Of a DNA stretch of 21,724 nt, positions 12,827 through 21,201 are shown piece by piece; within the stretch, counting starts at the first letter, position 1; each line of letters starts with the position of its first letter. Source of the stretch: a virus; UHGV virus genome UHGV-0132790; one strand, 5' to 3'. A program made the translations under genes and the position numbers. The notes under the pieces are model-generated. The model was not told where the DNA came from. It was given only the letters and a program-made list of their open reading frames with translations, and searched no databases.

Positions 12827-13501
12827 TCATATAGAGGCTGAATCTGATCTTTTTTGTTCACGTCTGGCTTCCACCATTGCAGGCAGAGTGAAGGCGTAGA
12901 CTAAAAACATTTCGGTAAAACTCAGGATCTGGCTTGCCTCAATTGGTGTGAAAACTTCATCTGTATGAACTGCTTTATTGGCATCAATTCGTACAATATG
13001 AGCCCATTCCTTCATCTGTTCAGTGATCAGGCCTTTTTTGTAAATCATCTGAATACGTTGCGACAGCGATTCTTTTCCTGCTTCATCGCCGAGCAGTTTT
13101 TTCGTGGAGATATCGAGGACTCTGCGACAAAGAATAACCACTGTGTCGTACCGCCTCCTCTGTAAATCCTCTTTTGCCTCAACAAAAGTACGGTCTGCAA
13201 CCGGGGGCGTATATTCTGGTGCGGTAATTTTTTTGACCACAGGATAGATCTTGCGGAAACGGTACTGGCTATTTCCTGAAATCAGAATATCGAGGTCTTT
13301 TTTCTGGCTTTCCGCCATGGGACCGTGATAGTGGTCTGATGGGATTTCAACAATAGCAACACCTCCTCGATGACAACTTCTGCATACAAAAGCGACGTTA
13401 AAAAAAGGTGTTTTTTCAATTTGTTTTTCGGCAAATGCCTCAATAACAGCTCGCTCTTTTAAACAGTGCGGGCATGTGATATCAAAGGAGACTAAACCCA
13501 T
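12827..13501 (-). CDS. Hypothetical protein (about 224 aa): N-terminal zinc ribbon (CPHC...CRSC) and a C-terminal region resembling DUF4145; candidate abortive-infection or defence protein
   Basis: Minus-strand ORF inside a plus-strand operon. ATG at 13501 (MGLVSFDITCPHC...) with GAGGAA upstream. The C-terminus KESLSQRIQMIYKKGLITEQMKEWAHIVRIDANKAVHTDEVFTPIEASQIL recalls the DUF4145 pattern from memory. Confidence 0.55.
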   Translation of the reverse strand: MGLVSFDITCPHCLKERAVIEAFAEKQIEKTPFFNVAFVCRSCHRGGVAIVEIPSDHYHGPMAESQKKDLDILISGNSQYRFRKIYPVVKKITAPEYTPPVADRTFVEAKEDLQRRRYDTVVILCRRVLDISTKKLLGDEAGKESLSQRIQMIYKKGLITEQMKEWAHIVRIDANKAVHTDEVFTPIEASQILSFTEMFLVYAFTLPAMVEARREQKRSDSASI

Positions 13502-13745
13502 GGATATTCCTCGCGAAATTAAAGAAATTAACGAAATCATTGAGGTTACTGATCGCCCCGAGTTTACCCTCATGCGTCGTTATGAAACAGGAACCGACGA
13601 ACAAAAATACATCATGGTTACAGCATTGGCTGTGATGGCGATAGAAAGGGAGCGAAGGGAAAAGGACGTAATGGTTATTCCTGAGAGAAATGATTCACCG
13701 GATTTGAGATGGCAGGAGCCGGAGTGGGATGTGGTAATCCGGTGA
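13500..13745 (+). CDS. Small hypothetical protein (81 aa)
   Basis: ATG at 13500 with AAGGAG 9 nt upstream. Its start codon shares the CATG at 13499-13502 with the divergent 12827-13501 gene. Confidence 0.35.
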   Translation: MDIPREIKEINEIIEVTDRPEFTLMRRYETGTDEQKYIMVTALAVMAIERERREKDVMVIPERNDSPDLRWQEPEWDVVIR

Positions 13746-13792
13746 TTGATATTTCTCTGGGGTAAAGCGCCGCCAGAATGACGGCGCGGTGG

Positions 13793-14098
13793 TTAAGCAT
13801 GAGGCGAAATTTCTGCCGGGCGGTATTTTGTTGAGAGATGAGATACGTCAACTTCTCTTTCCGCTTTTTCGAGGCTCCATGCCGTCTGGAGACGAATCCA
13901 TGAAGACGGAGTTCCACCCAGGACAGCAGCGAGACGAACAGCCATTTCAGGAGATATTGTCGCATTACCTGAAACCAGTCGCTGAACAGTGGAAGGCGCG
14001 ACATCAAGCGCTCTTGCCAGTTCCCTGATTCCAATATTCTGATCTTCCAGAATATCAGCAATAATTTCTCCGGGATGAGGGGGGTTAAACATCGCCAT
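13793..14098 (-). CDS. higA: HigA-type antitoxin (XRE-family HTH)
   Basis: 101-aa MAMFNPPHPGEIIADILEDQNIGIRELARALDVAPSTVQRLVSGNATISPEMAVRLAAVLGGTPSSWIRLQTAW... is typical of HigA/VapI antidote proteins. Lies downstream of the toxin with a 1-nt TAATG overlap. Confidence 0.8.
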   Translation of the reverse strand: MAMFNPPHPGEIIADILEDQNIGIRELARALDVAPSTVQRLVSGNATISPEMAVRLAAVLGGTPSSWIRLQTAWSLEKAEREVDVSHLSTKYRPAEISPHA

Positions 14099-14376
14099 TA
14101 GTGGTAATCCTCGTAGTTAAGAATATAAGCATCGCCGTTCCGAAACTCGAATGTGATTCTCCAGTTACCGGAGACGGTGACAGACCATGTATCGGATCTG
14201 TCCCCCTGCAACTGGTGCAGCCTGTACCCGGCAAGGTTAATATCATCAATGATTTCAGCTTGATCTATTACCTGAAGGCGCGTTCTCAGGCGTTTAACGT
14301 GATTGGGATTTATGCCTGATGCATTTCCTGTTTCAAAGAAACGTTGAAGTCCTTTGTGTTTCCAGCTTTTTATCAT
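14098..14376 (-). CDS. higB: HigB-type toxin (RelE/ParE superfamily)
   Basis: 92-aa MIKSWKHKGLQRFFETGNASGINPNHVKRLRTRLQVIDQAEIIDDINLAGYRLHQLQGDRSDTWSVTVSGNWRITFEFRNGDAYILNYEDYH. ATG at 14376 with AGGAAA upstream. Toxin-first gene order is characteristic of higBA. Confidence 0.8.
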   Translation of the reverse strand: MIKSWKHKGLQRFFETGNASGINPNHVKRLRTRLQVIDQAEIIDDINLAGYRLHQLQGDRSDTWSVTVSGNWRITFEFRNGDAYILNYEDYH

Positions 14377-14713
14377 GCTTGTTTCCTGTTGCGTTACGCG
14401 AATCATTATAGCGACTGTTGTGTAATGCGCAACGGTTGTTTGACAAAAATAGGTATCCGGGATTATATTCACCGCACGCCAGCAAAATCTGGCGTCGGGA
14501 TTGGCGTCCTGGATAGAGACCGCGACAGATACACGCCGCGAGCGTGTTTTTTATTGTCGTATGCACGCGCACATCTGAATTATGGTGGGCTGTGTGGGGG
14601 CGGAGAGATCCGCGCCGGTCGGTTTCCCGGTTACGCCAACCCTGCACAGTTCACCACCAGACGATTGGCGTCGTCGGTGGTGAGTTATTAAGAAACCACT
14701 CGAGGGCGTCATT

Positions 14714-15406
14714 ATGACAACTCAAATCTCTGTTGAAACTCTCTCCCCGATCACCCATAACCAGATTCCTGTTATTACCACCGAACTTTTGGCGCAGTTG
14801 TACGGTGCTGAAGTTAAGAACATTCAAAATAACTACGCCAGAAATGCTGAGCGCTTTATTGAAGGAAAGCATTTTTTCAAAGTGGCTGGCGATGCCCTGA
14901 AAAATTTGCGGGTAGCTTTAAACTACTCACAAAATTTGCAACCATCTTTAAGAGGGTTACAAATTTCCCCGAAAGCCCGCTCCCTCATCCTCTGGACAGA
15001 ACGAGGCGCAGCCCGTCACGCCAAAATGCTAGAAACCGATCAGGCGTGGGAAGTGTTCGAAAAACTGGAAGACTGCTATTTCAGCCAGGGAAAAACAGCA
15101 CCAACCGAACAGCAGCCGCAGATTCAGCCACAATTCACAGCCGAGGAAATCATCCTCCTTTGCTACATGCAACTCTGGATGGAAAAAGCCCAGGACCTTA
15201 GCAAGCAGCTGTACCCCATAATGAAAGAGCTGAACTCCTCATACACGAACAAGCTGTATGACATTGCGTTTGAGACTATCTACATGGTGACGAAGAACAG
15301 AGACGCGCTACTAAGGGAGGTAACACGTCTCGACATGTCAAGTTCCGTTATCCAGCGGGCCATGCCAATGCTGAAAAGCCTGCGGGCAAGACAATTTGAA
15401 TTCTGA
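14714..15406 (+). CDS. ORF6N-domain phage protein (Roi or antirepressor-like DNA-binding protein)
   Basis: N-terminal VITTELLAQLYGAEVKNIQNNYARNAERFIEGKHFFKV resembles the ORF6N domain consensus. 230 aa. Confidence 0.6.
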   Translation: MTTQISVETLSPITHNQIPVITTELLAQLYGAEVKNIQNNYARNAERFIEGKHFFKVAGDALKNLRVALNYSQNLQPSLRGLQISPKARSLILWTERGAARHAKMLETDQAWEVFEKLEDCYFSQGKTAPTEQQPQIQPQFTAEEIILLCYMQLWMEKAQDLSKQLYPIMKELNSSYTNKLYDIAFETIYMVTKNRDALLREVTRLDMSSSVIQRAMPMLKSLRARQFEF

Positions 15407-16929: not shown

Positions 16930-17164
16930 TATTCAGCAGGTGCCTGAACGCATGGCTTTATTCAGGTCGTCTGGAAAAGCGCATGAGCAGCGTAATAGCG
17001 GAGTTCATGGCGAAGAGTATATGAACAGATTATTTGAATGCTATATGAGACTGAAGCACGGAGATCGCTATGACCTGACACGTGATGCTGACGGTTTCTA
17101 CTGCCGTGAAGTTGTGAAACGAATGTTTGAAGTGTGGTGTCATTGTAAAGGATGGGGGCTGTGA
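16922..17164 (+). CDS. Hypothetical protein (80 aa)
   Basis: ATG at 16922 overlaps the ninH stop. Its stop overlaps the start of the next gene (TGATG). Confidence 0.4.
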   Translation: MRDIQQVPERMALFRSSGKAHEQRNSGVHGEEYMNRLFECYMRLKHGDRYDLTRDADGFYCREVVKRMFEVWCHCKGWGL

Positions 17165-17778
17165 TGCGGCTAACCCCAGTATTCGGCATGGTTAACTTTA
17201 TTAATGATGCTCATTTCCGCCGCATATGGAGGCATCCGAAGAAAATCATTAACTCTCGTCAGAAAGCATGGGTTCACTACATGCTACAGGTATGGGGAAA
17301 TGTTAACGCTGGTGATGATTCTCCTTGTGGTGCAATTAACGTTATTGGGCGACTGATGATTCGCAGTCAGTGGAGCGATGACAAAGCTAAGCAGATTGAG
17401 TCTGTTGTCATGCGTCTGTATGAAGAAGACGGACTACGTGGAGATGAACTCCATCAGAAAGCCCGAGAACTGGTCATCCCTCAGTCATCGGCAGGTAATA
17501 TCATTGCTCTCGCCAAAGAATCCGATGATGCTGCTTTCGTTGAACGTGTGATGGTTGAGACCTTTCATCGTGAAAGCCCTGTCCGTGATGTAGCTATTAG
17601 GCGATATTGCAATCGCGACAGCACGCAAGATATCGCCAGGATGATTTCTCAGATAACAGGAGTTGATATTCAGTATTGCCGGAGGCGGGTCGTGTGGTGC
17701 GAGAGGGTCCTTGATTCAGAAATGTTTTATGCAATGAAGCGAGAATTGGAGAAAGAACTTCTAGTGATTGCTGGATGA
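17164..17778 (+). CDS. Putative late antiterminator (Q-like), assigned by position only
   Basis: 204-aa ORF, last gene of the nin cluster, followed by a promoter/terminator unit. The order ninB-ninE-ybcO-rusA-small ORF-Q mirrors DLP12 (ybcN-ninE-ybcO-rusA-ylcG-quuD). Contains CRRRVVWC. Not lambda-Q-like in sequence. Confidence 0.45.
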   Translation: MRLTPVFGMVNFINDAHFRRIWRHPKKIINSRQKAWVHYMLQVWGNVNAGDDSPCGAINVIGRLMIRSQWSDDKAKQIESVVMRLYEEDGLRGDELHQKARELVIPQSSAGNIIALAKESDDAAFVERVMVETFHRESPVRDVAIRRYCNRDSTQDIARMISQITGVDIQYCRRRVVWCERVLDSEMFYAMKRELEKELLVIAG

Positions 17779-18311: not shown

Positions 18312-18510
18312 TTGTCTGGCTGCCGGAGAATTTGTTAAAAATTACATCGCGTGGTGAATCCCCCTCAGCGGCGGGGCATCTGGCAAAGTGTATGATCCAG
18401 CGAACATGCAAATTCAGTAGCCAGGCTGAATTTACCGGGAGGCACCTGGCACCATGCGACAGACAGAAATTAGGCTATACTTCAGCCCCTCTCCGGAGGG
18501 GCTTTTCTGT
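18312..18510 (+). ncRNA. Candidate small RNA or late-leader unit A (promoter to terminator)
   Basis: TTGTCT (18312-18317), 17 nt, TGtTAAAAA extended -10 (18333-18341). Perfect terminator AGCCCCTC-TCCG-GAGGGGCT (18484-18503) followed by TTTCTGT. No convincing ORF. Confidence 0.4.
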
Positions 18511-18687
18511 GCAGGATGTGTCACAGTTTCCTGAATTCTGAGTACTGTCCTGTTACTCAGGGTGCTATATTTTCTGACGTGATGAAAGTCTGCCGGAAGG
18601 CGGAACGTATCGGAAATGACCCAGTAGAGAAAACGTTGACTCAGATACCGATGCTGAGTTACCGGGAAACCGGCATCACATGACCGC

Positions 18688-18780: not shown

Positions 18781-18993
18781 TTGTCTGGCCAGCGGGAAGT
18801 TTGTTAAAAAAATATGGCATGGTGAATCCCCTGTGCGGAGGGGCATATCAGCGACAGGTGTTTGGTCACACCCCTTATCCTTTCTGGTGCGGGTTCAGGT
18901 GCTGATACTGAACTCACCGGGAGGCACCCGGCACCATGCATGAACGGTACATAGCGCTACTCTCCAGCCCCTCTCCGGAGGGGCTTTCTTGTT
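18781..18993 (+). ncRNA. Candidate small RNA or late-leader unit B (diverged paralogue of unit A)
   Basis: Same architecture as unit A: TTGTCT (18781-18786), TGtTAAAAA (18802-18810), identical terminator hairpin AGCCCCTCTCCGGAGGGGCT (18966-18985) followed by TTCTTGTT. Shared internal blocks GGTGAATCCCC and CACCGGGAGGCACC.GGCACCATGC. Confidence 0.4.
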
Positions 18994-19227
18994 GGATAAA
19001 AAAAAGCCCGCGCCGGGAAGCGCGGGTGGCAAGGAATAAACAACAAAACGTGAAGTGATCAATTTTCAGCTGGCGAATAATACCCGACAGTAATCACTCT
19101 GTGCAACTGTATGGTCTTTTTCGTATTGCGGGCTGTAGTCATCCTCCTGTTTCTGAACCCTTGTCCATGACTGACGTCAGCCCGCACCTTATCTTGATTG
19201 CATACACTATCCCTGCCGGGAGGAATA

Positions 19228-21201
19228 ATGGCATTTAAACACTATGACGTGGTCAGGGCATCATCGCCGTCAGACCTCGCAGGAAAACTGGCGCAAAAAC
19301 TGAAGGAAGGCTGGCAACCCTATGGTAGTCCGATTATCTCAAGCGCGGGTTATGGTGCTGAATTTATCCAGGCTATAGTCGCTGAAGGGGATATGACCTC
19401 TCCGGTAGTTTCACCGGGGGGAGATGGTACCCGGACTGTTGTTGTTGAACCAGAATATTACTTTGTCATTGCGCTGGCCGGACAGTCAAACGGCATGGCG
19501 TATGGTGAAGGCCTGCCGCTGCCGGAGACATATGACCGTCCGGACCCGCGTATTAAACAGCTGGCGCGTCGCAGTACGGTGACACCGGGTGGTGCGGCCT
19601 GTGCATATAACGACATCATTCCGGCGGACCACTGCCTGCATGATGTGCAGGATTTGAGCCGTTTTTCTCATCCGAAAGCCAGCGCAGAGCAGTATGGGTG
19701 TGTCGGACAGGGATTGCATATTGCCAAAAAGCTGTTGCCCTTTATGCCGGAAAATGCGGGTATTTTGTTAGTGCCGTGCTGTCGTGGTGGCTCTGCGTTT
19801 ACAGCCGGTGCTGACGGAACGTTCAGTGAAAGTTCAGGAGCGTCGGATAAATCTGAACGATGGGGCGTTGATAAGCCGTTGTATAAAGACCTGCTGACAC
19901 GCACTCAGGCCGCGCTGAAGGCAAACCCCAAAAACATACTGCTTTGTGTTGTCTGGATGCAGGGCGAGTTTGATTTAAAACAGGGAGCGTACGCCAGTCA
20001 GCCCGCCATGTTTGATGCCATGGTGGAAAAATACCGTTCTGACCTGGCGGGAGTATCCGGTCAGTGCGCTGGTGCTTCTCCTTCTCTGGTGCCCTGGATT
20101 TGTGGTGACACGACGTACTACTGGAAGGAGACGTATTCAGCGCAATACGATGCCGTCTATGGCGCATACAAAACCAAAGCCGGTAAAAATATCTTCTTTG
20201 TGCCGTTTATGATGGATGACAATGGTCAGAAAGTCGGGACCAATGAACCGTCAGAAGACCCGGATATTCCGGCTATCGGGTATTATGGTTCCGGTGGACG
20301 AACGGATGCGAAGAGCTGGACAACATCCGATCGTAAAACCCACTTTGGTTCATGGGCGCGTCGCGGAATTATTTCCGACCGTCTGGCAACAGCCATTCTT
20401 CTGCATGTGGGCAGAGTGGCAGATTTTGTTTCCGGGAAAGTGACAAAAGCCGCGGTTTCTTCAGGCGGAGGCGTATCGCAACCAGTACAGGAGAGTGGCG
20501 ATACTCAGCCTGAAGCCGTTGTCCCGACAAAGATACAGTCAGTGCTGGCTTATGATGTGAATGCGGAAAATGCCGCTCTGGCTTCGCAGGGCTGGACGCT
20601 GACAGATGTCAAAAACACGCTGGTCAGTGACAGTGGTTCAGGTAAAAAAGCCCTTCGTCTTGAAAAACCAGAAAATGGTCTTGCACAGAAAAAGACCTGG
20701 AAAGTATCGCACGCAATTGATGCCGGTAAGGGGAAGGAGCTGTTCGATAACGGCGGTGAAATCACGCTGCGCTTTAAAATCCCCGATGATGTATCTCTCA
20801 ATGCTTCTGCAAATCAATATTCTGCGGGTATTTACTGGCGCGGTAGTGGATGGCCGGGAGCGGAATCAGAGGAGGGTTATATTGCGGCCTTCTATCTGCA
20901 GACTGATAAAACAAACATCAATGTGATGTATCATGCAAACACCACATCACAGCGGCTTGGTAGTTATGGTCCGTTCGATCACGACTGGCACACGCTGACT
21001 TTCCGCTTCCCGGGTGGTGGCTCGCTGAACGTCACGCCGGTGCTTGATAATGCAGCAGGAAAACCGTTTACGCTGACCAGATGGACGAATGCAGCCTTTG
21101 AGGCCAACGCGCTGGCAATTACGGATATTACCGGAAATGCGGCAACTTACCCTGTGCTGATTGAAAGTCTTACTGTTGGTGTGAATGCCGTAGCAGCATA
21201 A
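19228..21201 (+). CDS. nanS-p: NanS-p-like sialate O-acetylesterase (SGNH/SASA hydrolase domain plus C-terminal domain), as found downstream of stx in Stx phages
   Basis: 658-aa protein from the ATG at 19228 (MAFKHYDVV...) with GGGAGG upstream. The GQSN SGNH-hydrolase motif in FVIALAGQSNGMAYGEG and the overall size and architecture fit the prophage NanS-p family. Confidence 0.8.
   Translation: MAFKHYDVVRASSPSDLAGKLAQKLKEGWQPYGSPIISSAGYGAEFIQAIVAEGDMTSPVVSPGGDGTRTVVVEPEYYFVIALAGQSNGMAYGEGLPLPETYDRPDPRIKQLARRSTVTPGGAACAYNDIIPADHCLHDVQDLSRFSHPKASAEQYGCVGQGLHIAKKLLPFMPENAGILLVPCCRGGSAFTAGADGTFSESSGASDKSERWGVDKPLYKDLLTRTQAALKANPKNILLCVVWMQGEFDLKQGAYASQPAMFDAMVEKYRSDLAGVSGQCAGASPSLVPWICGDTTYYWKETYSAQYDAVYGAYKTKAGKNIFFVPFMMDDNGQKVGTNEPSEDPDIPAIGYYGSGGRTDAKSWTTSDRKTHFGSWARRGIISDRLATAILLHVGRVADFVSGKVTKAAVSSGGGVSQPVQESGDTQPEAVVPTKIQSVLAYDVNAENAALASQGWTLTDVKNTLVSDSGSGKKALRLEKPENGLAQKKTWKVSHAIDAGKGKELFDNGGEITLRFKIPDDVSLNASANQYSAGIYWRGSGWPGAESEEGYIAAFYLQTDKTNINVMYHANTTSQRLGSYGPFDHDWHTLTFRFPGGGSLNVTPVLDNAAGKPFTLTRWTNAAFEANALAITDITGNAATYPVLIESLTVGVNAVAA

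Follow-up and report, generated by a model that had tools for sequence, protein, structure and literature searches.

The window analysed here, a stretch of 21,724 nt from the virus genome UHGV-0132790, carries at positions 13793-14376 two small minus-strand genes, higB and higA, which encode a toxin and an antitoxin of the HigB/HigA type. Over this region its DNA is 100% identical to the chromosome of E. coli JNEC-KY204, and the genes found around the pair are those of a lambdoid prophage: int, exo/bet/gam, recE, kil and N, together with genes for an S24 repressor, a cro-like protein and cII. These are followed by replication genes, by genes of the DUF1627 and DUF977 families and by an opposite-strand block made up of a DUF4145 gene, a small plus-strand ORF, higA and higB. 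Beyond higB lie ant (ORF6N/P22AR), ninB, ninE, rusA and ninH, and then the lysis, terminase and portal genes. The pair is thus located between replication-region genes (DUF1627, DUF977) and ant/ninB, and the nin-region placement given in the original prediction is a fair description.

The higB gene (14376..14098, minus strand; 92 aa) runs from an ATG at 14376 to a TAA at 14100-14098, and higA (14098..13793, minus strand; 101 aa) begins with an ATG at 14098. At the TAATG junction the stop codon of higB and the start codon of higA share a single nucleotide, the A at 14098. The coordinates, the lengths, the strand and the 1-nt overlap proposed for the two genes all proved exact when the sequence was read again. 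An AGGA motif is present 8 nt 5' of the higB ATG, and a GAGGA is embedded in the last higB codons, 9 nt 5' of the higA ATG, a position that fits a coupling of higA translation to that of higB. The two products are labelled by PGAP as a RelE/ParE family toxin (WP_021565208.1, HigB) and a HigA family addiction module antitoxin (WP_001240641.1, HigA). The HigB protein begins and ends as MIKSWKHKGLQRFFETG...NYEDYH. A longer, 124-aa version of higB, starting from a GTG at 14472, appeared in a mechanical list of open reading frames; it was ruled out because 72/72 full-length homologues are 92 aa long and PGAP chooses the same ATG at 14376. Moreover, the extension would cross the promoter and the operators described below, and the 92-aa reading was therefore kept. 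All 72 full-length homologues share the N-terminus MIKS(F/W)KHKGL.

The DUF4145-like gene that had been pointed out as a neighbour of the pair is indeed present at 12827-13501 (minus strand; 224 aa by the PGAP start; Pfam 4.9e-09), and its product has an N-terminal CxxC...CxxC. It is separated from higA by the small plus-strand ORF at 13500-13745 (81 aa), which is hypothetical according to PGAP, matches PHROG 8371, of unknown function, with 1.4e-55, and whose start overlaps the region of the DUF4145 start codon. The DUF4145 protein matches PHROG 1305, "DNA binding protein" (1.3e-63), with a faint PADLOC match to PD-T7-4 (E 0.0022), and its gene lies in a stretch of lower GC content (0.41-0.46 vs ~0.52 in the flanks). 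The DUF4145 gene and higBA are neighbours, and nothing was found in this analysis that would connect them functionally. Further along the plus strand, two tandem full-length STnc100 sRNAs (Rfam RF02076) were identified at 18319-18512 and 18788-18996 (139.9 and 129.8 bits), approximately 470 bp apart, between a 208-aa ORF (17152-17778) and a SASA-family esterase gene (19198-21201).

The HigB toxin and the HigA antitoxin

The toxin matches the Pfam family PF05015 (HigB-like_toxin) along the whole profile (1-91/91; 4.2e-22, 78.9 bits, cut-off 27), while with the RelE_StbE subfamily model it reaches 17.5 bits, below the cut-off of that model; it is therefore of the HigB type and not a RelE proper. 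The protein also matches PHROG 3066, "toxin of TA system" (1.8e-37), a family placed in the moron category. From a structural perspective, the best reference is the HigB of Rts1 from Proteus vulgaris, whose solved structures are 4MCT, 4MCX and 4PX8. Residues 1-92 of the window HigB align without gaps to chain 4MCT_B (~60% identity, E 4.6e-32), and an equally gapless alignment of all 92 residues, again at ~60% identity, is obtained with the crystal chain 4PX8_A. A RelE-like microbial RNase fold is thus predicted for the window protein.

In P. vulgaris HigB, residues H54, D90, Y91 and H92 are critical in vivo, and in vitro cleavage is most affected by the substitutions H54A and Y91A (PMC5027501). 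All four residues are found at the P. vulgaris positions in the window HigB, which also retains N71 and R73. Conservation was evaluated on a set of 80 homologous loci taken from contigs with one genome per species, the columns being scored on the 72 full-length proteins; in this set H54, D90, Y91 and H92 are 97-100% conserved. Furthermore, wherever a column is at least 90% conserved, the window HigB agrees with the consensus; the columns concerned include H7, K8, G9, L10, L34, L53, H54, L56, G58, W64, N71, W72, R73, F76, D90, Y91 and H92. By analogy with its characterised relative, the window HigB is predicted to be a ribosome-dependent mRNA endonuclease.

The antitoxin is an XRE-HTH protein (Pfam HTH_3, 4.9e-10, 39.7 bits, cut-off 23) and matches the NCBIfam equivalog TIGR02607, antidote_HigA (2e-25, 88.4 bits, cut-off 47.7). 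It belongs to PHROG 1381, "plasmid antitoxin with HTH domain", again in the moron category. The closest antitoxin of solved structure is the HigA of E. coli CFT073 (2ICP/2ICT), with residues 1-89 aligned to 2ICP, "antitoxin higa", at E 7.9e-28; the two proteins share the HTH core and the length class, although the CFT073 gene belongs to another E. coli locus. The match to P. vulgaris HigA (4MCX_A) is of 1e-19.

The homologous loci also support the arrangement of the genes. In 73/80 of them, higB is immediately followed by a higA homologue on its own strand, so that the toxin-first order is a conserved trait of the family, and about half of the loci share the 1-nt overlap; the higBA arrangement recognised from the window sequence holds, therefore, both here and across the family. 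Comparison with the 90%-identical allele of E. coli FDAARGOS_944 gave a dN/dS of 0.028/0.349 = 0.08 for higB and of 0.041/0.370 = 0.11 for higA, low values (~0.1 each) that point to strong purifying selection on both genes. From the conserved adjacency and this selection it can be argued that HigA would neutralise its cognate HigB. The original prediction had allowed that the toxin might turn out to be inactivated, or the pair to fall outside the HigB/HigA families. The toxin is in fact full length, has all the conserved and catalytic residues and is under purifying selection, and the pair is assigned to these families by the PF05015 and TIGR02607 matches and by solved relatives that are themselves named HigB and HigA; the matches are far above chance, with E-values of 1e-22 to 1e-32.

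With the Rts1 system (PDB 4MCT, 4MCX, 4PX8, 9CHL) the window pair shares a 92-aa toxin with H54/D90/Y91/H92 in place, the toxin-first order, the TAATG overlap and an XRE-HTH antitoxin of ~100 aa. The antitoxins, in contrast, are only ~40% identical and differ in the C-terminal tail, and the carrier is a plasmid in the case of Rts1 and a lambdoid prophage here.

The predicted hig promoter and operators

A search for a palindromic operator in 14377-14480, which had been suggested together with the original prediction, revealed two 15-nt direct repeats 29 bp apart. When these were compared with the sequences upstream of higB in homologous loci, each proved to lie within an imperfect palindrome of 17 bp, GTTRC-N7-GYAAC, and two operators (GTTGC-N7-RCAAC) bracketing a TATAAT are accordingly predicted in the window. 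O1 (14433..14417, minus strand) reads GTTGCGCATTACACAAC, with the form GTTGC-N7-ACAAC, and overlaps a -35-like element. This element, TTGCGC (14432..14427, minus strand), lies inside O1, is weak (3/6 consensus match) and is separated by a 16-nt spacer from a perfect -10, TATAAT (14410..14405, minus strand), which was read from the sequence between the two operators. O2 (14404..14388, minus strand; GATTCGCGTAACGCAAC) begins right after the -10 and is composed of a degenerate left half (3/5) and a GCAAC right half. A generic sigma-70 scan of 13400-14800 called no minus-strand promoter; the hig promoter was missed by the scan because its -35 matches the consensus at only 3/6 positions, and homologous loci were used instead to position it.

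If the window is considered by itself, the operator pattern is about as frequent as chance would give (3 matches vs 3.6 expected at one mismatch), and the support for the operators hence comes from conservation across loci. At least one operator site is present in the 100 nt upstream of higB in 64/80 loci, against a mean of 7.8 in mononucleotide shuffles, and a pair of sites 24-34 bp apart occurs in the same interval in 26/80 loci, against a mean of 0.06 and a maximum of 2 in the shuffles. The paired sites are almost always located at -57 to -62 and -28 to -33 from the higB start codon, and a TATAAT, TATAGT or TATACT is found at the equivalent place in the homologous loci. Among E. coli alleles, the half-sites of O1 are unchanged in the three compared, with a variable 7-nt spacer (GCATTAC, GAATGAC, GTACATC), and O2 is identical in all four compared.

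Experiments on the Rts1 system have established two operators, O1 and O2, overlapping the -35 and the -10, to which both HigA and HigB-HigA bind; each of them consists of a pair of inverted repeats and is bound by one HigA dimer, and the Rts1 complex is reported not to bind a hig operator from E. coli (PMC12266136). The homologous locus L076, which encodes exactly the HigB and HigA proteins of Rts1 (100% identity), served as a proxy for the Rts1 operators. Its upstream region contains ATTGCACATCGTGTAAT, followed by 13 nt with a TATAGT and then by ATTACACACCATGTAAT, so that the position and the geometry of O1 and O2 are as in the window. In both systems two 17-bp palindromes, those of the window being predicted, bracket the -10, with O1 over the -35. 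From this conserved position and the Rts1 geometry, autorepression by HigA through palindromic operators that overlap its promoter is predicted. The half-sites differ, however, being GTTGC/GCAAC in the window and ATTRC/GTAAT in Rts1. This difference, along with the failure of the Rts1 complex to bind an E. coli hig operator, makes it plausible that the operator specificity is not the same, and the two systems probably differ in this respect.

Limits, neighbours and distribution of the cassette

Just past the higA stop codon, a terminator-like hairpin is found at 13787..13767 (minus strand), with a 9-bp G+C-rich stem followed by UUU (-16.5 kcal/mol, z -3.05). It may act as a terminator, although its U tract is short; owing to the short T run a generic terminator scan did not call a hairpin after higA, and it was RNA folding that showed it. 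Position 13768 is where homology to phage GER2, to Stx2a phages of the PA2 type and to several E. coli genomes starts; the left recombination boundary of the cassette coincides with this hairpin. At the opposite end, the PA2-type phages become homologous again from 14440, which is the -35 of a strong plus-strand promoter. The higBA cassette is thus ~670 bp long (~13768-14439).

The plus-strand promoter (TTGACA-18-TATATT, 14440-14469; -35 at 14440-14445) starts only 6 bp from the hig operator O1 and leads into a series of RNA elements, all on the plus strand and recognised by Rfam: an a1/b1 target element (14463-14515), isrK (14476-14552, 74.7 bits), which ends at a terminator at 14531-14557, and a C4 antisense RNA (14578-14661, 66.7 bits). 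The antirepressor gene ant follows at 14714-15406 (plus strand), with ORF6N and P22AR C-terminal domains. The isrK RNA, the a1/b1 element and the C4 RNA constitute a known module that controls the downstream antirepressor. The cassette and the isrK/C4 module therefore stand back-to-back, and the 337-bp stretch that appears intergenic is fully accounted for by the hig promoter with O1 and O2 and by the RNAs that control ant.

The association with this module is a fixed one. The cassette adjoins the same ant leader in all three contexts inspected (GER2, FDAARGOS_944 and 2014C-3338), and the genes on its other side differ. The FDAARGOS_944 allele (L084, 3696-5302), a 90%-identical higBA with its ant leader, belongs to another lambdoid prophage, where it is flanked by ninE and ant, with ninB and a methyltransferase gene preceding. 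This different placement indicates that the stretch from higA to the end of the 5' half of ant, ~1.3 kb in all, is mobile as a single block.

A search of 5,426 complete E. coli genomes found higB together with its promoter in 22-23 of them, always on the chromosome, and higA, used alone as a query, in 68. A larger figure, of ~890 E. coli genomes with higA, proved wrong, as those matches fall in the isrK/C4 leader, which is common. Of the 68 genomes that contain this higA, about 46, approximately two thirds, have lost higB, which shows that the toxin is dispensable for the phage. In a comparison with 50,697 phage records, the HigB protein found relatives only in GER2 and in five records of lambda-like Mannheimia phages; among plasmid records, 550 contain relatives, all below 80% identity. 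GER2 is an E. coli Stx phage that has higBA among its early genes; its toxin shares 98.9% identity with the window HigB and bears the annotation "plasmid maintenance system killer HigB". The Mannheimia haemolytica phages 535AP2, 1152AP2 and 3927AP1 likewise have an early-region higBA, with toxins 57.6% identical, but in a different genomic neighbourhood; a prophage-stabilising role has been proposed for these genes (PMC4553209).

The Stx2a phages of O157:H7 (PA2, phi346, phi349 and related) represent a different case. Their HigA is identical to that of the window at 100/101 residues, the one change in PA2 or phi346 being N5T, and its gene occupies the same slot next to isrK/C4-ant, with the same downstream boundary at 13768. 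In these phages, however, higB, the hig promoter and the operators are replaced by a gene for a ParD-like antitoxin and one for a 93-aa lipoprotein (phi346/PA2 type, L002 2501-3560), and no operator-like site takes the place of O1 and O2 in the orphan-higA phage locus. What has survived of higB is its final 22 nt (window 14099-14120), with the ribosome-binding site of higA, and this stump indicates that the orphan HigA descends from a complete cassette. The window HigB is thus likely to be its lost partner. The presence of orphan ParD and HigA in Stx2a phages was noted in a 2025 paper, in which their relevance was called unclear (PMC12502783).

A proposed mechanism and its alternatives

The locus, with the gene structure, family membership, catalytic residues, purifying selection, operator architecture and cassette boundaries described above, is very probably an intact, autoregulated type II HigB/HigA toxin-antitoxin cassette, a moron that an E. 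coli lambdoid prophage carries in reverse orientation where its nin region begins. Its toxicity, neutralisation, RNA cleavage, DNA binding and repression, as well as its biological role, are predicted by analogy with characterised relatives. One promoter (TTGCGC-16-TATAAT) would transcribe higB and then higA, the translation of HigA being coupled to that of HigB via the TAATG overlap. HigB, as a ribosome-dependent endonuclease of the RelE fold, would cut mRNA in the A site and arrest translation, as expected from its homology to Rts1. A HigA dimer would combine with HigB into a HigB2-HigA2 complex in which the toxin is neutralised, and through its XRE helix-turn-helix HigA would bind O1, over the -35, and O2, just after the -10, repressing its own promoter. 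When the synthesis of HigA is stopped or HigA is degraded, free HigB would bring growth to a halt, an outcome that would penalise the loss of the cassette or of the prophage, or could abort a superinfection.

Two other readings of the locus appear highly improbable. According to one of them, the cassette is a decaying, non-toxic remnant, with intact ORFs but an inactive toxin, in which only HigA matters. Loss of the toxin is certainly common and tolerated, as indicated by the higA-bearing E. coli genomes without higB (~46/68) and by the 22-nt stump to which the gene is reduced in the O157 Stx2a phages; the window, however, has a full-length higB with all the catalytic and invariant residues and a dN/dS of 0.08, and it keeps the promoter, the predicted operators and the ribosome-binding site. 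The other reading, to which we attach just as little credence, regards HigA mainly as a phage regulator that, from O1, controls the divergent isrK/C4-ant promoter and hence the antirepressor and induction, with HigB as an accessory co-factor. The distance of 6 bp between O1 and the plus-strand -35 (14440-14445), and the fact that higBA and the isrK/C4-ant leader travel together in the window, GER2 and FDAARGOS_944, are in agreement with such a role. Yet this co-mobility is explained by the shared ancestry of the 1.3-kb block, and many unrelated loci outside phages have the operator pair equally far from higB, which is what plain autoregulation would lead one to expect. Moreover, the orphan-higA phages retain the isrK/ant promoter from 14440 onward without O1, O2, the hig promoter or a replacement site, so that control of ant needs no HigA operators; control of the divergent ant promoter as the main function of HigA was rejected on this ground.

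A third alternative accepts the same mechanism and concerns the role for which it has been selected, which would be anti-phage abortive infection or superinfection exclusion instead of addiction and stabilisation. This is possible, although we hold it to be the less probable role. The reverse orientation and the own promoter of the moron are a layout typical of accessory genes expressed in lysogens, the cassette adjoins the DUF4145 gene with its faint PD-T7-4 match, and validated defence systems such as PD-lambda-2 include HigB-like toxins (bioRxiv 10.1101/2022.05.12.491691). Against it, the PADLOC models, including that of PD-lambda-2, gave no match to HigB at E up to 0.01 (and for HigA only weak generic HTH matches), and the closest characterised relative, Rts1, is a plasmid-stabilisation system; the sequence itself is compatible with both exclusion and addiction and does not distinguish them. 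Prophage stabilisation or abortive infection, the two roles put forward in the original prediction, are a reasonable speculation for the intact toxin-antitoxin cassette.

The pair itself was already known, being annotated in RefSeq and in phage GER2 as HigA/RelE-ParE/HigB, and it is an ordinary member of a well-studied toxin-antitoxin family. As a close relative of one of the best-studied systems, its importance beyond a correct annotation is small. The prediction of O1, O2 and the -10 adds a set of half-sites unlike those of Rts1, usable for studies of HigA operator specificity, and the analysis also defines a mobile cassette of ~670 bp in fixed association with the isrK/C4-ant module. As for the orphan HigA of the Stx2a phages, it is conceivable, though rather unlikely, that it has been kept as an anti-addiction or anti-exclusion factor against HigB from competing lambdoid prophages with the full cassette. 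If this were true, Stx2a phages and their lysogens would resist HigB delivered or left behind by competing prophages, and a classical type II antitoxin would be serving in inter-prophage competition. The recognition of the orphan as a truncated derivative of the cassette gives it, in any case, a defined toxin to be tried against.
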